Assembly (NCBI GenBank): GCA_016649895.1
Contig: JAENWR010000005.1
Span: 1 to 64,000 of the forward strand
DNA: 64,000 bases
Direction of reading: 5' to 3'
From: Acidimicrobiia bacterium
Lineage (GTDB): Bacteria > Actinomycetota > Acidimicrobiia > Acidimicrobiales > SKKL01
Position 1 is the first letter of the stretch. Every line of letters begins with the position of its first letter. Made by a program: the position numbers and the translations under genes. Of this stretch, positions 1 through 8,695 are shown piece by piece. The notes under the pieces were generated by a model that searched no databases, was not told the DNA's origin, and saw only the letters and a program-made list of their open reading frames with translations.

Positions 1-326
1 CATATCTAGGTACTACCACCCCAGCCGACAGATCGCGAGCTTCTGACCAGGACAAACGCGCTGGTCACAGGGCTATTTGGAAGAAATTCCCAAGCGGGTC
101 CAAGATCACCTCAACGGAATAGCCCGGAAACTCCCGCTAGGCCCGTGAAGAGGCCAGATCTTCGGACGAATCGCGAGATTTCGGACGGCTTGCCTTGAGA
201 AGGGACTGTTGGGGCCAGCTCGGGCTTGGGCGTCTCGTCCCGCGCCGGCAGGACGGGGAGTCTCATGCAAGTCCAGTCGAGCCGAAGAGAATCTACGTAT
301 GACCAAGAAATCGGTACGCTTGCGGG

Positions 327-554
327 GTGGAGCGCATCACCGTGTCGTTGGATGCCGAACAAGCGGCGACCCTGCGCGCCTTGGCGGCTGCTCATGACAC
401 CACCGTGAGCGCCGTCGTGAGAGCCGCCGCCGACGCCCTCGCCGCCGAGCACACCGCCGCAGGCTCGATCCGGCGTCGAATCCGACCCGACGCTCGAGGC
501 GGTGCGCGCCCCGGGGCCGGTCGGCCTCGAAGTGACGCCGGCAGGGCGGCCTGA
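327..554 (+). CDS. Ribbon-helix-helix (CopG/Arc-like) DNA-binding protein, putative antitoxin
   Basis: N-terminus MERITVSLDAEQAATLRALAAAHDTTVSAVVRAA is a beta-strand/helix-helix pattern typical of RHH antitoxins. Its stop overlaps the next start (ATGA at 552-556). Confidence 0.5.
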   Translation: MERITVSLDAEQAATLRALAAAHDTTVSAVVRAAADALAAEHTAAGSIRRRIRPDARGGARPGAGRPRSDAGRAA

Positions 555-1318
555 TGAGCGGCTTCGTCACACTCCGGCTCGACGGGTCGGTCACTGTCGC
601 CAACTTCGCCAAGGCCACCTCGAACTTCGCCAAGGTGCTCACCGAGCTGTCGAAAGAACGGGACGCCAGCTCCAAGATCGAATGGGTCATCAGCGGCTTG
701 GAGTACGGCAGCGCCATCCTCACGGCCGCGCCGCAACCGTTCTCCGACGACGACGCCGAGCTGGTCCCGACCCTCGTTTCGGACTTCATCACCGTCGCTC
801 GTCAGGTGAGCGAACACCCAGCGCACCTCGACCGGCCGGTGCTACGCCTCGTGCGCAGTATCAGTGAGGTCGCCGTCGACCAGGACCACGAGGTGGTTTT
901 CGAGACGGCCGACGAGGAGGTGGCGTTCGTTCACCGCAACCAGGGAGGCCCCACCCCGGTTCGGCCGAAGCCGGTTCTCGGGACGATTCGAGGGCGCGTT
1001 CAGACACTGCAACAGCGCAAGGGGCTTCGATTCGTTCTCTACGACCTGGTCCACGACAAGGCCGTCACCTGCTACCTCACGGAGGACCAGGAAGGCTTGA
1101 TGCGCGACGCGTGGGGCCGGATGGTCGAAGTCACCGGCATGATCACGCGCGACGAGATCACCGATCGCCCGAGGGCGATCCGTCGCGTCGCCGACGTCCA
1201 GGTGCTCGAGGACGGCGCCGATGCCTTCGCCTTCCGACGTGCTCGCGGCGCGGTCACCCCCGCCCCGGGGTCGCCGGCCTCCGAGGTGTTGATCCGCCGA
1301 GTTCGCGATGCCGTCTGA
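554..1318 (+). CDS. Hypothetical 254-aa protein, middle gene of RHH-X-PIN operon
   Basis: Long ORF with non-repetitive composition and no recognised motif. It is translationally coupled on both sides: ATGA overlap with the upstream RHH gene and an 11-nt overlap with the downstream PIN gene. Confidence 0.45.
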   Translation: MSGFVTLRLDGSVTVANFAKATSNFAKVLTELSKERDASSKIEWVISGLEYGSAILTAAPQPFSDDDAELVPTLVSDFITVARQVSEHPAHLDRPVLRLVRSISEVAVDQDHEVVFETADEEVAFVHRNQGGPTPVRPKPVLGTIRGRVQTLQQRKGLRFVLYDLVHDKAVTCYLTEDQEGLMRDAWGRMVEVTGMITRDEITDRPRAIRRVADVQVLEDGADAFAFRRARGAVTPAPGSPASEVLIRRVRDAV

Positions 1319-1796
1319 CCAACCGATGGAGTACCTCGACGCGAACGTGCTCCTCGCCTACATCAGCGGTGAGGCCGACCGAGTCGACATCGTCGAGCAA
1401 CTGCTCAGCGAGGCGGCTGAGGGGAAGCGGACCCTGGTGACGTCGACGCTGTCGATCGTCGAGGTGGCCTACGCAGTCAGCGACCTCGGGATCGATCTGA
1501 GCGAGGAGAGCGAGCAGGCGATCGATGAGCTGTGGGCGCCACCCTCTCCCATCCTCCTCATCGAGCCTTCCGTAGCGGTGATGCGTCGCGCTCGCGGGTT
1601 CCTGCGGCAGGCGAAGAGCGCTGGGCGGAAGCTGAAGCCCGCCGACTCGATCCACCTTGCATCGGCAGCGATGACCGCAGCCGTCGGCACGCTGCTCACC
1701 TACGAGACGGAGAACACCAGGACCTACTGGGCCGAGGTCACGGCGCTCGTCGTCGCCGAGCCCGACATCGACCAGCGACGCTTGCCCTGGGCATAG
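1308..1796 (+). CDS. PIN-domain ribonuclease (VapC-like toxin)
   Basis: N-terminal YLDANVLLAYI, acidic residues spaced as in the PIN fold (D..E..D), ~160 aa. Confidence 0.7.
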   Translation: MPSDQPMEYLDANVLLAYISGEADRVDIVEQLLSEAAEGKRTLVTSTLSIVEVAYAVSDLGIDLSEESEQAIDELWAPPSPILLIEPSVAVMRRARGFLRQAKSAGRKLKPADSIHLASAAMTAAVGTLLTYETENTRTYWAEVTALVVAEPDIDQRRLPWA

Positions 1797-1981
1797 AGCA
1801 ACCCCTCCGCGGCGCGAACTCTGCGCCAAGCTGAGAGCGTTTGACGGCTTCCGTCGTGCCACATTCGTGCCACAACGGGATCATTTTCGGTCGTACTGGA
1901 CGGACGGGCTGGTACAGGAAAACCGCCTCTGACCTGCTGGTTTATGCATTTGGCCAGGTCAGCAAATCGGGCCTGATCGAT

Positions 1982-2044
1982 TTCCCAAGCTGAGAATGCG
2001 GGTTCGATTCCCGTCATCCGCTCTCCACATCGGTCCAGGTCAGC
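1982..2044 (+). repeat. tRNA 3'-end-like direct repeat, copy 1 (att-like scar)
   Basis: TTCCCAAGCTGAGAATGCGGGTTCGATTCCCGTCATCCGCTC contains the T-arm GCGGG-TTCGATT-CCCGT and an acceptor 3' strand. The anticodon-loop-like TTCCCAA would give anticodon CCC. No complementary 5' acceptor strand is present upstream, so it is a fragment and not a gene. The flank TCCACATCGGTCCAGGTCAGC is shared with copy 3. Confidence 0.6.
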
Positions 2045-2259
2045 CCGAAACGTCCGCCGATCAAGCCGACAGCACCGGCCCATGCTCGCCACACGCATCC
2101 CTGTCGCCGAGCTGGTTCGGGCAGCGCCAGGCCTGGCCGTCGTACTCGTGAACCGGGCATTGCCCGGTCCCCGATGCGAGCCGCTCTCGGATGTCGTCGA
2201 TGGCGCGTTTCTTGCGCTTACTCGGGGCGCGGTCCGAGGCGAGCTGAGCGAAGGCGAGG

Positions 2260-3098
2260 TCAAGGTGCTGATCGCTCCAGCGGATCCATCGGGTGATGAG
2301 CGCCAGCGGGTCGCCCGCCGTGGCGGGGTTCGACGAGGTACGCAGCTACATCGACAACGAAGTCCGGATCGCCGAGGTGAGCAGCGAGGCGCGCTCGGAA
2401 CTCGCCGGGGTGAAGCTCGGCGTGGAACAGGTAGTGCGCTGCGGCCTGCCCCAAGAGTTCGTCATCGAGGGCGAGCTGGCGGTGCGCGACGTCGAGGTCG
2501 TTGAGGTCGCGTCCCTTGCTCCGTTGCGCGAGCGCTCGGAACTTCGTAGCGATGAGCTCGACCGGCTGGAAGGTGAGGAGGTCGGAGCCTCCGCTCCACC
2601 AGTCGCTGTGCGCTTCCAACCGTCGCCGATCGAGGGGTGGACGGCGGGGACCTCGTCAAGGTTGATCTCGATCTTGAGGCGCCGTTCCTGCCCGCGATGG
2701 TCGACGTATCCGAGGTGTTCGGTGAGCCGAGTTCGGGTTGTCTTCGCGTTCTTGGCGACGCTGAGCTCGACGGACTCGGCGACCTCGCGCAACCCGATGC
2801 GCAGCGTCCGCATGTCGTTGGCTTCGATCGAGAGGTCGTAGGCGACATAGTCGAGGTCTTCGCTGAAGCGGAGCGCCTTCGGAAGGAACAGCTTGTGGAG
2901 GCAGGTGCCACCTCGCCAGGCGAGTCGGTCGCGCAACGTCGGGTGCTCCGAGACCTCGATTGCGACCCTCGTCATGATGAGGTCCTGCTCGACCTGGTCG
3001 AAGTCCGCCCAGGGATGGTCGACCTGCCAGGCGCCAAGGGCATCGGCGGAGATCACAACTCGTCCGCCTCCACAGTCGCATTGACGATGACACCCCAA
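2260..3098 (-). pseudogene. AbiEii/AbiGii-family nucleotidyltransferase toxin (type IV TA), frameshifted
   Basis: The N-terminal ORF (3098 down to ~2600) has GGTCLHKLFLPKALRFSEDLDYV (NTase hG[GS]...D.D motif). The C-terminal ORF (2619 down to 2260, other frame) has ATKFRALAQRSKGRDLNDL (AbiEii C-terminal motif). A 1-nt frameshift separates the two halves. Confidence 0.65.
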
Positions 3099-3898
3099 CG
3101 CTCGTCGTGAGGCCCCAGACGGGCGCCCTCGGCGGCGAGCAACGAGGGTCGGCCCTGATCGGGCTGCGCAAGCTCCCGAAGCGCGGCGAGGTCGAGATCG
3201 TTGCGCACGAGCTCGAGGAGCCAGCCGAGACGCCGGGCATCGGGTCGTGATCGCCTCCCGGCAAGGTCGGCAAGCCGCTGGCCGTCGAGATCGGGGAGCT
3301 CGGCAAGGATCGTCGCTACGTTTGACAACCCGCTGCCGACTCTGGGCCGGCTGGCGAGGTCGACCGCGCAGAGGTCGGGGGTGGCGACCTTCATCATCGT
3401 TCGGGGTCCAGCGACTCGACGGACGGCATCAACGTCGATCTTGGCCGACGTGTGGAACCGCAGTCGCACACGTTCGATGTCGCGGTCCCGCACCCTCCGG
3501 TCGGTGACGACCTGGAACTCCTGGGGAGCCTGGTGAGCAGCGCCCCACCATTGCGCGGCCGATGCGAAGGCGATGTAGTAGTCGACGCCGAGCTGGCGCA
3601 TCATCGGGTCGATGAAGTGGGTGGCGGGGGTGACACCCCAGGATCGGTGCTCGGGGGGCACGACGACGTAGAGGCCTCGCACCGGGGAGAACAGCCTCTT
3701 GCGGTCGACTGCGTACTTCGCCGCGCCGTACACGGCGTTCGTCGTCGCGCCCGTCCGCTCCACGAGGTCAGCCACGGTGAACGAGCTCCTGCCCTCGGAC
3801 AGCAGCTCGTCCCACAGGGCGGTAAAATTCACCTGACTCACGAATCTTAGGATAAACCGGAGAAACAGCCTGAGTGCCGAAACTAGGGATTTCTCCAA
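3053..3898 (-). CDS. AbiEi-family antitoxin / transcriptional regulator (type IV TA)
   Basis: FTVADLVERTG...NAVYGAAKYAVDRKRLFSPVRGLYVVVP matches the AbiEi N-terminal wHTH pattern. Lies upstream of and overlapping the AbiEii gene. The true start is probably an internal GTG near 3835. Confidence 0.65.
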   Translation of the reverse strand: MEKSLVSALRLFLRFILRFVSQVNFTALWDELLSEGRSSFTVADLVERTGATTNAVYGAAKYAVDRKRLFSPVRGLYVVVPPEHRSWGVTPATHFIDPMMRQLGVDYYIAFASAAQWWGAAHQAPQEFQVVTDRRVRDRDIERVRLRFHTSAKIDVDAVRRVAGPRTMMKVATPDLCAVDLASRPRVGSGLSNVATILAELPDLDGQRLADLAGRRSRPDARRLGWLLELVRNDLDLAALRELAQPDQGRPSLLAAEGARLGPHDERWGVIVNATVEADEL

Positions 3899-4084
3899 GA
3901 TTCAGACATCGTACCTCCCGAGTTCAGGCCCCTCTTCAGGAAGCGCCTTGAGCGCGCTGTCGGCGTGGCACCAGCGCCTGCTCCACACCGAGCTGGTCCT
4001 CCCGCGATCGCGTGACGATCGGAACGCTGCACTTATTGCGTTTACTGGTAGGGTCAGCGTCTCGACGAGTATGGAGGTTCCGGC

Positions 4085-4519
4085 GTGAGCGACGTGCGAG
4101 AGGTTCGGCCCGGAGCGGTCGGCCCCGAGGAGCTCCAGGCGTTCGAGCGCGTGCTGGAAGGCATGTCGCCGATCGGCCAGACGCCCCGTCTCATCGGACC
4201 GGGGGGAGTGGAGATCGTGCTGCCGGAAGGGATCTACGCCCTGCTCGTCTCGATCGTCGACAACCTCAAGGCGGGCAACGGGGTCTCGGTCATCCCCATC
4301 CATGCCGAGCTCACCACCGTCGAGGCGGCTCAGCTGTTGAACGTGAGCCGTCCCTTCCTCATCAAACAGATCGAGGCGGGTGTGCTTGCCCATCACATGG
4401 TCGGGACGCATCGACGCTTGCGGCTGGCAGATGTGCTGGCCTATCGCGACCGGATCGACGCCGAGGCCGACGAGGCGCTCGATGCCATGGTGGCTGAGGC
4501 TGAGGACCTCGGTCTCTAG
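4085..4519 (+). CDS. Excisionase-family helix-turn-helix DNA-binding protein (putative antitoxin)
   Basis: LTTVEAAQLLNVSRPFLIKQIEAGVLAHHMVGTHRRLRLADVLAY resembles Xis/MerR-type HTH. Sits 20 nt upstream of the PIN fragment. Confidence 0.55.
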   Translation: MSDVREVRPGAVGPEELQAFERVLEGMSPIGQTPRLIGPGGVEIVLPEGIYALLVSIVDNLKAGNGVSVIPIHAELTTVEAAQLLNVSRPFLIKQIEAGVLAHHMVGTHRRLRLADVLAYRDRIDAEADEALDAMVAEAEDLGL

Positions 4520-4539
4520 GACAAGAGCTGCCCGGTCTC

Positions 4540-4770
4540 GTGGCGGGGTACGTCGTCGTCCTCGACGCGAACGTCCTGTACGGGATCGACGTCACCGACT
4601 TGATGGCCACGATGGCCAGGCAACGCTTGTTCCGCCCCCACTGGTCGCCAGAGATCCTCGACGAGGTGACCCGCAACCTCGGCCCGGCGGCCCGATCTCG
4701 AGCCCGCGGCCATCGGGCGTCGCATCGACCACCTGAACCGTGCGTTGCCCTTACGCGAGACCACGGTTGA
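4540..4770 (+). pseudogene. PIN-domain protein, N-terminal fragment (truncated/diverged C-terminus)
   Basis: N-terminus VVLDANVLYGIDVTDLMA is a PIN start. After ~45 aa the reading degenerates, and it ends ~50 bp before tRNA-like repeat copy 2. Confidence 0.4.
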
Positions 4771-4819
4771 CCTGGGGAAACACACGAACCCTCAGGTCAG
4801 GGAACTCCGTCCGCTGAGC

Positions 4820-4861
4820 TTCCCAAGCTGAGAATGCGGGTTCGATTCCCGTCATCCGCTC
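4820..4861 (+). repeat. tRNA 3'-end-like direct repeat, copy 2 (att-like scar)
   Basis: Identical 42-nt core TTCCCAAGCTGAGAATGCGGGTTCGATTCCCGTCATCCGCTC. Flanks differ from copies 1 and 3. Confidence 0.6.
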
Positions 4862-4966
4862 CCTGCCCTCGACGGGAAGTTGGTCGGCGCGCCGACAACG
4901 CGCACCGTGACCCAAAGGCGTCCAGGGCCCGTCGTATCGATATACCGGGCAGCCGTCCTCGCTTTT

Positions 4967-4998
4967 GTCCGGTGTCCGGTAGCTGCCGGACACCGGAC
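4967..4998. promoter_or_regulatory. Perfect 13-bp inverted repeat GTCCGGTGTCCGG-N6-CCGGACACCGGAC, candidate operator
   Basis: Perfect palindrome ending 17 nt upstream of the GTG start (5016) of the downstream HTH-like gene. Confidence 0.4.
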
Positions 4999-5015
4999 GA
5001 GGTACCCTGACTGGC

Positions 5016-6104
5016 GTGCCACGACTTCGCACTCCACCGGACCGGCAACACGAGGCCGCCATCGAGGAACTGGTCACCCTCGCGTCCAGCATGCGGGGTC
5101 TCCACATCGTGCGGTCCGCCGAGGACCACGTCAACGTCACCGTGGGGCAGCACAGCTGGCCGGCCAAAGTCATCGCCAGGGATGCCGTGTCACTACGTGA
5201 TGCCCAGCACCTCGTCGAGAACGAGGCCCGGGGTTCGAAGATCGTCGTGGCCAACCAGGTCTCCACGGAAGCGAAGGACTTCCTCGCCGAGCGGAACGAG
5301 GCGAACCGCACCTTCGGGTGGAGCTGGCTCGATCGGCGAGGCGAGCTGGTGCTCAACCATCCGAAGGCCTCGGGGGTGATCCAGTTCGATCTCGATGCGA
5401 TCGACCGCAACCCGGCCCGACCTGGTGGCTGGGGGCTCGCCTCTCCCCGATCCAGCGGCGCCATCCGAGGGCGCGCCGGCATGAGCTACGCCGCTGCGGT
5501 CCTCCTCGACCCGACCGAACGACCATCGATCCGCGCCGTCGCCGAACAGGCGGGGATGTCCCACGGTGCGATCGGCGAGGCCGCCAAACTCATGCGAGAC
5601 GCCGGGCTCATCCGCCGCAATGGCGAACCCGAGATCCCCGACCTCTTCGATGCGCTCGCCGATGCCTGGGGGCCGACGCTCATCGCACCAGTCGACACCG
5701 TGCCAACCCGCGAGGACGCCGACCGATTGCGTGCCAACGTCGACGACCTCAGCGACCTCGGGTGGGGGCTGGGCGGCGACGAGGCCGCACTGTCCTGGGG
5801 TGCGCCCATGTTCTTGAGCGGGTTCCGGCCCTGGATCTGGGTACCGACCGAGGCCGACGCCCGCCGGGCCACCCGCGCCCTCCAACCAGCGAAGTGGGAC
5901 GACAGCCGAGTGGTGTTCGCGGTCGCTCCCACCTTGCTCGTCTCCCGGACTCGTGTCCCGTCACCGGGGATCGCCGAACCCGCGTTCATCCCCACCGTCC
6001 ACCCGCTCTTCCTCGCGCTCGACCTCGCCCGCGACCCGGGGCGCGGCCGGGAGATCCTCGACGGATGGAACCCCAAGCAACCGGAGATCCACCGTGTTTG
6101 GTGA
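5016..6104 (+). CDS. Hypothetical protein with predicted HTH segment (putative regulator/antitoxin)
   Basis: 362-aa ORF. The segment SIRAVAEQAGMSHGAIGEAAKLMRDAGLIRRNG is HTH-like. Its stop overlaps the start of the downstream NTase gene. Confidence 0.45.
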   Translation: MPRLRTPPDRQHEAAIEELVTLASSMRGLHIVRSAEDHVNVTVGQHSWPAKVIARDAVSLRDAQHLVENEARGSKIVVANQVSTEAKDFLAERNEANRTFGWSWLDRRGELVLNHPKASGVIQFDLDAIDRNPARPGGWGLASPRSSGAIRGRAGMSYAAAVLLDPTERPSIRAVAEQAGMSHGAIGEAAKLMRDAGLIRRNGEPEIPDLFDALADAWGPTLIAPVDTVPTREDADRLRANVDDLSDLGWGLGGDEAALSWGAPMFLSGFRPWIWVPTEADARRATRALQPAKWDDSRVVFAVAPTLLVSRTRVPSPGIAEPAFIPTVHPLFLALDLARDPGRGREILDGWNPKQPEIHRVW

Positions 6105-6840
6105 CCCACCGCTCATCATGCTTCCCGATCACAGCCGGTCGCTGCTGGAGGCAACCCGGACGGTGCTCGCGACTGCCGACCTTCCACCTGTTGTGCTCAT
6201 CGGTGGCCTCGCGGTCACCATGCGAACCAGCGCGATGGGCGCCGCCCATCGCGCGACAGTCGACATCGACCTGGTGACCATCGACGCTGAGCCCGAGACC
6301 ATCGAGGTGCTCGCCGACGCGCACGGATCGAGCCGGCAACCCCTGATGATCGACGGCATCAAGGTCGACCTCATCCCGACCAGCCCGATCACCGACGACG
6401 ACCTCGACGGCCTGGATGACGGAGACCGGCTGTTCGTGGCCGGGCACCGCTGGGCCTTCGAGGGCGGCACACCCTCGCGCCTCGCCATCTCCGCAGCGGA
6501 ACCGCTCCACGCCACCGTCGCCACCACCCACGCCCTCGTCGCCACCAAGTGCCATGCCATCGGCTACCCCACCAGCCGGCGCCGAGCCACCAAACACGCC
6601 TCCGACCTGCTCGACCTCTTCCGCCTCGTCGAGCTCTACAACGTCAGAAGCGAGCTCAGTCGCGACCTCCGTGCAGGACCGCCCGGCCTCGCCCGAATCA
6701 TCGCCGACATCGTCCACTACGAGGTCATCGCCAAGATCGACACCGCGGCACGACAGATGTCGTCCATGGCTCCCGCTCCGATCACCGCCAACAGCGTGCT
6801 CGATGTCGTCGGCGACTTCGTCGACGAGCTCCGAGGCTGA
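6094..6840 (+). CDS. Nucleotidyltransferase-fold protein (AbiEii/MNT-like), putative toxin
   Basis: LIGGLAVTMRT...HRATVDIDLVT fits NTase hG[GS]x9-13Dh[DE]h. C-terminal ATKHASDLLDLFRL resembles the AbiEii-like K..D..DL motif. Alternative ATG start at 6118. Confidence 0.5.
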   Translation: MFGDPPLIMLPDHSRSLLEATRTVLATADLPPVVLIGGLAVTMRTSAMGAAHRATVDIDLVTIDAEPETIEVLADAHGSSRQPLMIDGIKVDLIPTSPITDDDLDGLDDGDRLFVAGHRWAFEGGTPSRLAISAAEPLHATVATTHALVATKCHAIGYPTSRRRATKHASDLLDLFRLVELYNVRSELSRDLRAGPPGLARIIADIVHYEVIAKIDTAARQMSSMAPAPITANSVLDVVGDFVDELRG

Positions 6841-6897
6841 TCGTCGAGAAGCTGAGTACCCGGCCACGAGGCGGCGTGACCCTAGCTGTACGACACC

Positions 6898-6961
6898 TTC
6901 CCAAGCTGAGAATGCGGGTTCGATTTCGTGTCACCCGCTCTCCGCATCGGCCCAGGTCAGC
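6898..6961 (+). repeat. tRNA 3'-end-like direct repeat, copy 3 (diverged)
   Basis: TTCCCAAGCTGAGAATGCGGGTTCGATT is identical, then diverged (TCGTGTCACCCGCTC). The flank TCCGCATCGGCCCAGGTCAGC resembles the copy-1 flank. Confidence 0.55.
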
Positions 6962-7452
6962 GGCGGTTTTCTGGCTTCCGCCACCTCGTCGCAGTCCTGG
7001 GGTCGAAGATACCCCGCCTCTGCGTCGATGTCCCACCGGTAGCACTCCGCCTCATAGACCCCACCGTCGCTGAGCGGATCCTGCGACTGGTCCGTTCTCA
7101 CCCGGATGACCTGCCCGTCAATCTCGTAGGTGTACTTCACCAGAGCGCCCTCGTCCGTCGGGGACGAGACCTCAAGCCGGGCGGACTCGCCAGCAGCGAA
7201 CGCTGCTGCTGCGCACGGCACGCTCCCATATCCGTGGACGAGCCACGCTCTCGTCCTGATCGAGGACGGCAAAGTTGCCCAGATCGGGAACCTCCACACC
7301 CCATGACAGTCCAGGTCCGCCTGCACGGTTGCTGCAATGGCCCTGGACACAGAGGGCCAGGTCGGGGATCTGCCAGGACAGCACGGACGCCCGGGCACCC
7401 AACCCCATCGCGACGCCTCCAGGGAACCTTCTCCGTTGCAGGCCCAGGTCAT
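6931..7452 (-). CDS. Hypothetical protein
   Basis: 173-aa ORF with no recognised motif. It overlaps repeat copy 3. Confidence 0.25.
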   Translation of the reverse strand: MTWACNGEGSLEASRWGWVPGRPCCPGRSPTWPSVSRAIAATVQADLDCHGVWRFPIWATLPSSIRTRAWLVHGYGSVPCAAAAFAAGESARLEVSSPTDEGALVKYTYEIDGQVIRVRTDQSQDPLSDGGVYEAECYRWDIDAEAGYLRPQDCDEVAEARKPPLTWADAESG

Positions 7453-7477
7453 GCCCGGTTTCCTGCGACCTGGGCCT

Positions 7478-8695
7478 TCACCGTTCAGCGCCCGGAATCG
7501 GGGGCGTGACCCTAACGTGACCTGACGGATCGACCGGCGTACCGTCGCCCAGCTCCTGCACTACAAGGGGCAGGAGGTTCAAGAGGACGTCCTCACGAGC
7601 AGCGAAGCCTCCGTCTCGCTCGACGATCAGGTCGAGCCCCACAAGTTCGTTGAGGTCTCGGGTGAGGGTCTTCGGCCCACAGGCGGCGTAGGCGGCGGCG
7701 AGATCCGGCGTGAGCCGAGGGAGATCCTTCTTGGCGACGACGCCGCGACCCAGGAGGGTGTTGGCGATCAGGCTTCGCCGTTGGCGCATCTCCACGTCGC
7801 GGCCGGTCACCTGTTCGGCGACGTGCTCGCGCCAGGTGAGCCGGACCTGGCGGTCGTAGACGAACTGGAGCTGGCCGGTCAGTCCGGACACGAACCCTTC
7901 AGCGCAGTACTCCAGGAACCGGCTGACATCGCCTCCAGACTCACTGGCGTAGCGGAGTTGGCGGTAGTAGTCGTCGCGGGTGTCGTTGCAGTGGTTGGAG
8001 ATGAGGTGGGCGGCCGATGTCGGCACACCCGAGGTCACGAGTACGAGGTACTCGCAGAGACGAGCGGTGCGGCCGTTGCCGTCGCCGAACGGATGGATCC
8101 ACGCGAGGTAGAGGTGCGCCATCGAGGCGCGGATGACCGCGGTCGGCAGGCGCATGTGCCGCTCGCCGGCGAAGCCCGAGCCGTTCAGCCAGTCACACAT
8201 CCGCGCGAGGAGGGCTTCGCACTCAGCAGCGTCCGGCGCGCGGTAGGGCCCGACGACCACGGGATCGGTTCGAAGCTGTCCCGGCATCACATGGACGTCG
8301 AGGTCCTCCAGACCCTCGAGGACCATCCGGTTGAAGTCGGCGATCAGCTCCGGAGTGAGCACTGGGGAGTGCCCGTCTCTGATCTCCCCGAGCACCCAGT
8401 TGTACGCGGTGATGACGTTCTCCACTTCTCGCACCTGATACTCGGGAGAGGCGGAGACGGTGCGGCGCTCGACGATCGCCCGCACTGTGTCCTCAGAGAG
8501 GGTGTTGCCCTCGATCGCCGTGGTCGCGTGCGCTCCCTTGGCGAGGCTCACGATGTGCAGCTGGTCGGCGTACGTCTTCGGCAGGGGTACGCGAGCGAGG
8601 TGGCTGCACTTTGATCTCGCCTCGCCCAGGAGCATCCAGAACGACGCGCTCATCCGCTTGAGGTCGACGTCGAACGTGATCCAGGGATGCTCCAC
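7478..8695 (-). CDS. Fic/Doc-family protein with N-terminal inhibitory motif (class II-like)
   Basis: Fic motif HPFGDGNGRTARL. An upstream TTAIEGN fits the inhibitory [ST]xxxE[GN] helix. C-terminal wHTH-like extension. Confidence 0.8.
   Translation of the reverse strand: MEHPWITFDVDLKRMSASFWMLLGEARSKCSHLARVPLPKTYADQLHIVSLAKGAHATTAIEGNTLSEDTVRAIVERRTVSASPEYQVREVENVITAYNWVLGEIRDGHSPVLTPELIADFNRMVLEGLEDLDVHVMPGQLRTDPVVVGPYRAPDAAECEALLARMCDWLNGSGFAGERHMRLPTAVIRASMAHLYLAWIHPFGDGNGRTARLCEYLVLVTSGVPTSAAHLISNHCNDTRDDYYRQLRYASESGGDVSRFLEYCAEGFVSGLTGQLQFVYDRQVRLTWREHVAEQVTGRDVEMRQRRSLIANTLLGRGVVAKKDLPRLTPDLAAAYAACGPKTLTRDLNELVGLDLIVERDGGFAAREDVLLNLLPLVVQELGDGTPVDPSGHVRVTPPIPGAER

Follow-up and report, generated by a model that had tools for sequence, protein, structure and literature searches.

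We analysed a window of 64,000 nucleotides (nt) from an Acidimicrobiia bacterium (contig JAENWR010000005.1, positions 1 to 64,000) and focused on three genes near its beginning. The first gene encodes a ribbon-helix-helix (RHH) protein, the third a VapC-type PIN nuclease, and the middle one a protein that we call X (Table 1). PIN/VapC proteins are the most abundant toxins of toxin-antitoxin (TA) systems, and the partners described for them are small proteins that bind DNA. A first-pass annotation had taken the three genes for a candidate three-component TA operon. The positions of the three co-oriented open reading frames (ORFs) were re-derived from the sequence and agreed with that annotation, as did the length of the overlap between X and PIN. 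The RHH/X junction had been described as ATGA; it reads cTGATGa instead, and the stop codon TGA (552-554) and the start codon ATG (554-556) share a single base. The GC content is 67.8% in the module versus 69.9% across the window. Proteins identical to these are on record from an Acidimicrobiia MAG (metagenome-assembled genome).

Table 1. Features of the three-gene locus and its surroundings. Positions refer to the window unless another locus is named; aa, amino acids.
Feature	Position	Strand	Description
33-nt conserved upstream element	288-320	+	Putative promoter/operator
Palindrome within the element	294-299		TACGTA
-10-like hexamer	315-320		TACGCT, 6 nt before the RHH GTG
RHH gene	327-554	+	GTG start, 75 aa; Pfam RHH_1
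RHH (CopG-type) domain	Residues 1-42 of 75 aa		Clade-specific gene
X gene	554-1318	+	ATG start, 254 aa
X N-terminal domain	554-931 (residues 1-126)	+	Predicted acidic α+β domain, β-α-β-β-α-α-β-β order
X OB-fold β-barrel	974-1204 (residues 141-217)	+	Predicted; region of strongest conservation in the family, with many Arg and aromatic residues that are invariant
X C-terminal helix	1280-1315 (residues 243-254)	+	Motif E-x-x-[IV]-R-R-x-R-D-A; candidate PIN-binding/inhibiting tail
X/PIN overlap	1308-1318	+	11 nt; PIN ATG inside the X Asp-Ala codons (cgc-GAT-Gcc)
PIN gene	1308-1796	+	ATG start, 162 aa; VapC-type nuclease, putative toxin; Pfam PIN
tRNA 3'-end-like 28-mer, first copy	2000-2027	+	0 mismatches
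Weak ASpks small RNA match	2256-2338	-	Most likely chance
AbiEii/AbiEi type IV TA pair	2346-3098 and 3053-3898	-	Between the 28-mers
tRNA 3'-end-like 28-mer, second copy	4838-4865	+	3 mismatches
Leader of Solirubrobacterales loci	L019 1926-2091; L072 2041-2206; L083 5837-6002; L079 4663-4828 (-); L081; L022; L080; L055		On other contigs; about 150 nt

Linkage, decay and distribution of the X and PIN genes

Genome loci (at least 119) were collected from the GTDB species genomes with a degenerate DNA pattern that covers the OB motif of X, which biases the sampled loci toward an intact OB motif. In all contexts fetched, whether via X or via PIN, X is directly followed by a PIN gene, and these PIN genes all belong to one family. 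The two genes overlap in all 78 full pairs, by 8 nt (46 pairs), 11 nt (28), 14 nt (3), or 17 nt (1), and in every one of them the PIN ATG falls within the codons of the terminal R-D-A motif of X (cgcGATGcc). The overlap is expected to couple the translation of the two genes. As PIN begins inside the codons for the invariant Arg-Asp-Ala, the C-terminal end of X is under a dual constraint, on the protein and on translation initiation.

The linkage was also seen from the PIN side. When scans were seeded with PIN, and only PINs of at least 100 bits with room upstream were counted, X was found upstream in 9/9 cases on JGI metagenome contigs and in 4/4 cases in IMG/VR. Distant X relatives precede many weaker PIN relatives as well, including the PIN homologues P0041, P0046, and P0054. 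The linkage between X and this PIN family is obligate, and the conserved unit is a widespread, unannotated X-PIN pair, not RHH-X-PIN. The three-gene arrangement is nevertheless not a product of chance: the X-PIN overlap is universal among the full pairs, and RHH, X, and PIN stand in this order, joined in the same way, also in loci L002 and L130 and, in a decayed form, in L054. Conservation of gene order had been proposed as a check on the first-pass annotation; the X-PIN order is widely conserved, whereas the RHH-X-PIN order is restricted to close relatives of the window.

Among the loci listed, classification based on hidden Markov models (HMMs) gave 97 genome loci in which both X and PIN could be evaluated. 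Both genes were intact in 71 loci; X was intact with a fragmented PIN in 13 and with no detectable PIN in 3; X was broken together with a broken or absent PIN in 10. A broken X beside an intact PIN was never found. The decay is one-sided, with 16 loci carrying an intact X and a damaged or absent PIN versus none with the reverse (Fisher exact p=4.2e-7), which is the pattern expected if PIN is harmful without X. Pseudogenisation is frequent, as 26 of the 97 evaluable loci are damaged.

Almost all X-PIN loci come from MAGs, and they show a patchy, multi-copy distribution across more than 10 phyla. The hosts in the Chloroflexota belong to the Dehalococcoidia, SAR202, Anaerolineae, Chloroflexia, Thermomicrobiales, and Limnocylindria, and those in the Actinomycetota to the Acidimicrobiales, Solirubrobacterales, Gaiellales, and Streptosporangiaceae. 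Further hosts are Acidobacteriota, Deinococcota, Gemmatimonadota, Nitrospinota, Nitrospirales, Planctomycetota, Dormibacterota, and Methylomirabilota. No X homologue was present in the PLSDB plasmids or the GenBank phages. The family has probably never been annotated because of this absence and its near confinement to uncultured lineages known from MAGs.

The flanks were surveyed through 125 ORFs at 63 loci. The most frequent families among them were transposases (DDE_Tnp_1 8, DDE_Tnp_1_6 4, DUF772 4, IS1595 3) and restriction-modification genes (Eco57I 4, MmeI 3, N6_Mtase 2, Mrr 2), for which the flanks are enriched, and no neighbour gene was conserved, the top family reaching a count of 8. 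Individual loci adjoin VapBC, Phd-PIN, Fic, GASH, ImmA-like, and helicase genes.

Several single loci illustrate the range of contexts. On the phage contig IMGVR_UViG_3300002498_000055 (L211), X-PIN at 4205-5507 is followed 3.3 kb downstream by the gene for a large terminase, with DUF5131 and HNH genes near, and on an IMG/VR viral contig (L215) it stands beside RecT and SRAP genes. Two copies per genome occur in one MAG (L017 and L108) and on one contig, where both are broken (L084 and L116). In a Dehalococcoidia genome (L043), the main pair is encoded on the minus strand (plus-strand coordinates about 1541-2831) and, in the same 8-kb stretch, there is a second and far more divergent X-like/PIN-like pair at 6261-7561 on the plus strand (X 53 bits, PIN 62 bits).

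Predicted folds of PIN and X and comparison with known systems

The PIN protein matches Pfam PIN with E=2.1e-10 and 41.7 bits (cut-off 23.6); it is longer than usual and forms a sequence family of its own. Its AlphaFold2 model has a mean confidence (pLDDT) of 89.5, and the top PDB structures found with Foldseek were FitB (2bsq), Shigella VapC (5ecw/3tnd), Rickettsia VapC2 (3zvk), and M. tuberculosis VapC11 (6a7v); Salmonella VapC and M. tuberculosis VapC15 and VapC20 are also close. The residues D11, E52, and D113 are conserved in 78/78 pairs, and position 133 (E133 here) is D or E in 71/78. The protein combines a PIN fold with the D-E-D-D/E acidic active-site residues that define a VapC, and since these residues are conserved, the enzyme should be active.

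With the nearest structures of PIN being VapC toxins, it is very improbable that X-PIN is a non-toxic, two-subunit housekeeping enzyme of RNA processing whose TA-like features are coincidental. Such an enzyme would account for two well-folded, conserved proteins and for an X that exceeds the usual size of antitoxins, and PIN domains do occur in RNA maturation enzymes. It is at odds, however, with a patchy and multi-copy distribution over more than 10 phyla, the lack of a conserved neighbourhood, damage in about a quarter of the evaluable loci (26/97), transposases and restriction-modification genes as neighbours, and copies in phage contigs. The first-pass annotation depended on X being a functional partner of PIN rather than a housekeeping protein, and this view was supported.

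For X, no match above noise was obtained in Pfam, NCBIfam, PADLOC, or PHROGs, in line with the earlier description of a protein without a recognisable domain, and none was found among the PDB sequences. A word-indexed search returned 22 relatives, which understates the family. In an exhaustive profile (HMM) search of 1.84 billion cluster representatives (clusters at 50% identity), there were 2,181 matches at E≤1e-3, 1,137 at E≤1e-10, and 501 at E≤1e-30. Nearly all of the best matches listed have 245-285 aa and align end to end. Ten diverse members were checked, and none was assigned a Pfam family; where the sources name the homologues at all, they are called 'hypothetical protein'. The N-terminal extensions of P0131, P0174, and P0208 were considered as fused DNA-binding domains and discarded, as they are of low complexity and look like mis-called starts.

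The AlphaFold2 model of X (mc41a06a4d235; pLDDT 79.6, predicted template modelling score 0.77) shows three parts. The N-terminal domain is a block with pLDDT 80-96 and a charge of -11, in which W44 is invariant. Foldseek related it to the dimeric ferredoxin-like structure 2op5 with a probability of ~0.9 but an E of ~0.03, so the domain may tentatively be called ferredoxin-like, and dimerisation or sensing are candidate roles. The second part is predicted to be a five-stranded β-barrel with OB topology. Among the structures closest to this barrel are the anticodon-binding domains of aminoacyl-tRNA synthetases and SSB/RPA. The third part, the C-terminal helix, was modelled at residues 243-253 with a low pLDDT of ~50.

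The top-conserved positions of the family fall in the OB barrel and the C-terminal tail (alignment A2), and E244, R248, R251, and D252 of the tail are invariant or nearly so (alignments A1 and A2). The codons of the tail Arg residues vary synonymously between loci (CGC/AGG/AGA), from which it follows that the tail motif is under selection at the protein level besides the DNA level. The C-terminal tails of VapB and FitA insert an Arg into the active site of their PIN partner. We take the conserved Arg-rich end of X to recall these tails, which serves as a lead only.

The OB barrel suggests a different role for X, namely that of a subunit that senses nucleic acid, or targets the enzyme, in a nuclease of the abortive-infection or defence type. 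Here the OB fold would bind single-stranded DNA, RNA, or tRNA (phage replication intermediates, a tRNA substrate) and thereby release, activate, or direct PIN, which is compatible with X also holding PIN inactive at rest. The barrel is the most conserved region of X, its invariant Arg and aromatic residues are typical of nucleic-acid-binding faces (a suggestive point only), and its closest structures include, as noted above, aminoacyl-tRNA synthetase anticodon-binding domains and SSB/RPA. VapC toxins typically cut tRNA or rRNA (PMC10440598), and restriction-modification, transposase, and other defence or TA genes lie nearby, with some copies on phage contigs. Nevertheless, OB folds mediate protein-protein contacts too, neither X nor PIN matches any PADLOC defence model, and the one-sided decay needs only a protective X and does not demonstrate sensing. 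We regard this role as possible but unlikely.

Compared with the OB-fold domains of SSB, RPA, PriB, and the class IIb aminoacyl-tRNA synthetases (anticodon-binding), X has a sequence identity of 10-22% only, and it has no Pfam SSB or tRNA_anti-codon match. It differs from them in that the barrel lies between a novel N-terminal domain and a basic tail, and in that its gene is always paired with a PIN gene.

X-PIN resembles VapBC and FitAB in several respects. The PIN fold is nearest to FitB/VapC structures with the four acidic residues conserved, the gene just upstream encodes the partner and shares 8-17 nt with the toxin gene (78/78 pairs), and the pair is mobile, multi-copy, and often decayed. 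The partner itself is different: VapB-type antitoxins are proteins of 70-100 aa with an N-terminal AbrB, RHH, Phd, or helix-turn-helix (HTH) domain and a toxin-binding tail, whereas X has 254 aa, an α+β domain and an OB fold, lacks any recognised domain for DNA binding, and is unrelated in sequence to every VapB. Because X lacks what defines a VapB, X-PIN should not be filed as VapBC, even though it appears to work like one.

PIN domains with non-canonical partners have been described, namely COG2442/DUF433, COG2880, and MerR-like proteins (PMC2701414) and NetFlax nodes such as PanA, SpnP2, and SynP1 (PMC10440598). X-PIN is similar as another PIN fold with an unrelated, putatively neutralising partner upstream, but none of these partners is described as an OB-fold protein of ~250 aa. 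An OB-fold partner is not mentioned in the PIN-partner surveys of Makarova 2009 (PMC2701414) and NetFlax (PMC10440598), and a full-text literature search that combined PIN, OB-fold, and antitoxin yielded no relevant paper. In PADLOC-DB v2, X and PIN had no match, and the lone RHH match (E=0.017) was noise.

The RHH gene, its upstream element and the neighbouring sequence

The RHH protein matches Pfam RHH_1 with E=3.7e-6 and 27.1 bits (cut-off 20.5) and is very basic, with an isoelectric point (pI) of 11.5. Its basic C-terminal tail, IRRRIxPDARGGARPGAGRP, is invariant among the homologues, more so than the RHH domain (alignment A8). The GRP-rich part resembles DNA-binding arms of the AT-hook kind, which is a lead only. 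Only 7 homologues were detectable, all of them close.

An RHH ORF ending at the X start was present in L002, L003, L004, and L121 (X 70% identical) and in L130 (85%), and an RHH remnant was present in L054 (91%). No RHH was found upstream of X at 53% X identity (L128, L129), at 35-43% (L001, L005-L007), or in any of the other genome loci inspected (at least 90). The gene is limited to the clade whose X is 70-100% identical to that of the window. Hidden small antitoxins abutting X in the loci without RHH were also considered and rejected, since the ORFs there resemble translated non-coding DNA and are neither RHH nor HTH.

As RHH is missing outside this narrow clade, X was not inserted into a VapBC pair; rather, RHH joined an autonomous X-PIN pair. 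Of the roles that the first-pass annotation had offered for X, that of a large modular antitoxin is favoured, and that of an insertion into VapBC falls away. The latter would mean that PIN and RHH form a canonical pair with RHH as the actual VapB-type antitoxin, and would make X a chaperone, specificity factor, or second antitoxin. RHH-PIN is indeed among the commonest TA pairings (PMC2701414), the basic RHH tail (IRRRIxPDA) loosely resembles the X tail, and all three genes appear translationally coupled in the window. Set against this are the absence of RHH from X-PIN loci beyond the clade, down to relatives at 53% identity, the 7-member RHH family, a PIN start embedded in X and not in RHH, and the fact that an intact PIN without X was never found in the loci classified or in the PIN-seeded scans. 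We consider this arrangement highly improbable, and a second PIN-binding tail on RHH is a low-probability lead only, as the invariant GRP-rich part of that tail has more the look of an arm that binds DNA.

The window, L002, L130, and L054 have a single upstream stretch in common, the 33-nt element, where their similarity begins ~40 nt before the RHH GTG; the sequence further upstream is unrelated. In all four loci, the RHH-X-PIN cassette and this element sit between unrelated flanks, and, judging from these alignments, RHH and the element move as a unit. A TANNNT hexamer occurs 6-8 nt ahead of the GTG in 4/4 loci. We read it as the probable -10 box of a leaderless mRNA, in keeping with actinobacterial promoters; its position suggests a leaderless transcript. 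No match was found in 1-2400 either in a promoter scan with the E. coli-type σ70 consensus or in a scan for intrinsic terminators. The RHH domain, the palindrome, and the -10-like hexamer are consistent with repression at the element, for which a promoter/operator function is proposed on sequence grounds. By analogy with known regulators, RHH would be a putative dedicated repressor of the operon, recruited to an X-PIN module without a classical DNA-binding antitoxin domain.

The layout of regulator, antitoxin, and toxin has precedents in omega-epsilon-zeta, paaR-paaA-parE, and pasABC (PMC4803016). The earlier claim of an undescribed TA architecture does not hold for the layout itself; the novelty is the X family, not the tricistronic arrangement. 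The operon of the window clade has the gene order of ω-ε-ζ (pSM19035) and PaaR-PaaA-ParE (E. coli O157:H7), its first gene encodes a small DNA-binding protein (ω is an RHH protein as well), and the protein in the middle is one without a classical domain for DNA binding (PMC4803016). Its three co-oriented genes are joined by 1-nt and 11-nt overlaps, in the clade of at least 70% X identity only. Unlike in those systems, the putative toxin is a PIN nuclease, and the RHH regulator is optional, confined to a narrow clade, and only presumed to repress. The three window proteins had no Pfam or NCBIfam match to ε/ζ or PaaA/ParE.

Two relatives of the cassette show further features. In L002, from an Iamiaceae MAG (X 70% identical), a tRNA-Thr(CGT) gene (4411-4486), a typical location for the integration of islands, precedes the RHH-X-PIN cassette by 290 bp. 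L054 (JACOTK010000214.1, 3611-4805) is a decaying copy with an intact X, 91% identical, and a frameshifted PIN; an internal deletion in RHH has joined the initial 15 codons of the gene to X in the same reading frame, and the product is annotated as the 281-aa protein P0002.

Solirubrobacterales loci of X-PIN without RHH share a conserved leader (Table 1). It contains a 12-bp GC-rich hairpin with a few compensatory changes, followed by a T-rich tract, ~90 nt before the X start. Rfam has no entry for this leader, which may act as a terminator, as an attenuator, or in some other way as a control element.

Downstream of the operon, the window carries two direct copies of a 28-mer that resembles a tRNA 3' end, of which none is expected by chance. 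The operon had been thought to lie within these repeats; it sits just upstream of the first copy, and the repeats bracket the neighbouring AbiEi/AbiEii module (2346-3898, minus strand). This pair and its repeats look like an islet integrated at a tRNA-derived attachment site. The suggestion of a mobile origin keeps its support from the mobile and defence-type DNA in which the module lies, but loses the repeats as an argument. No intact tRNA gene was detected anywhere in the window. An Rfam scan of 1-6000 gave nothing meaningful; the weak ASpks match reached 23.4 bits against a gathering threshold of 52 (E=0.46).

Proposed mechanism and significance

From the linkage, the one-sided decay, and the predicted folds, we consider it fairly probable that X-PIN is an autonomous, horizontally mobile, TA-like module in which X inhibits a VapC-type PIN and to which the window clade has added an RHH regulator. 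PIN would be a ribonuclease toxin, and X, made just before it on the same mRNA, would be its cognate protein inhibitor. By analogy with the Arg-bearing C-terminal tails of the VapB/FitA antitoxins, the basic C-terminal helix of X (E..IRR.RDA), possibly together with the OB barrel, may dock on the acidic active-site face of PIN and block it, and the loss or titration of X would free the nuclease. In the Acidimicrobiia clade of the window, the RHH gene, with its basic GRP-containing tail, would have been added upstream. The 33-nt element would drive a probably leaderless tricistronic transcript, and RHH would repress this promoter/operator and so autoregulate the operon, in a role analogous to that of ω in ω-ε-ζ or PaaR in PaaR-PaaA-ParE.

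Several points weigh against an inhibitor role for X in a TA-like module. X, at 254 aa and well folded, is unlike the typical small and partly disordered antitoxins, and its conserved OB fold with invariant Arg and aromatic residues could mean binding of nucleic acid rather than of the toxin. X (pI 5.6) and PIN (pI 4.5) are both acidic overall. Most X-PIN loci have no recognised DNA-binding component for autoregulation, and the likeness between the RHH and X tails means that RHH could contact PIN too. Part of the conservation of the X tail is forced by the embedded PIN start and probably by its ribosome-binding site. The decay counts come from loci seeded with an X motif, so orphan PINs could have escaped, and many of the loci come from MAGs assembled from long reads, where a frameshift can be an error of the assembly.

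A bolder form of the sensor idea would treat X-PIN as an undescribed, widespread module of the defence type, present in uncultured members of the Chloroflexota, Actinomycetota, and Acidobacteriota as well as in their phages. A single-stranded DNA, RNA, or tRNA ligand, of phage origin or produced under stress, would bind the OB barrel and free the active site of PIN from the C-terminal helix, and individual clades would have added controls of their own, the RHH repressor here and the leader hairpin in the Solirubrobacterales. We consider this form unlikely.

Whether or not X senses a ligand, the 2,181 clusters at 50% identity, spread over more than 10 phyla and phage contigs, make up a large family that has so far gone unannotated. 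TA specialists already expect PIN to have many partners; the X family stands out among them as large, phylogenetically broad, structurally unlike the known antitoxins, and directly testable. Defining it would extend the TA network by a new domain, that of an antitoxin or partner, and would supply an annotation model for thousands of 'hypothetical proteins'. The clade-specific RHH gives a natural example of a bipartite module that gained a separate regulator and became tripartite. If the OB fold does bind nucleic acid, X-PIN would be a simple system that couples the release of a toxin to the sensing of a ligand.

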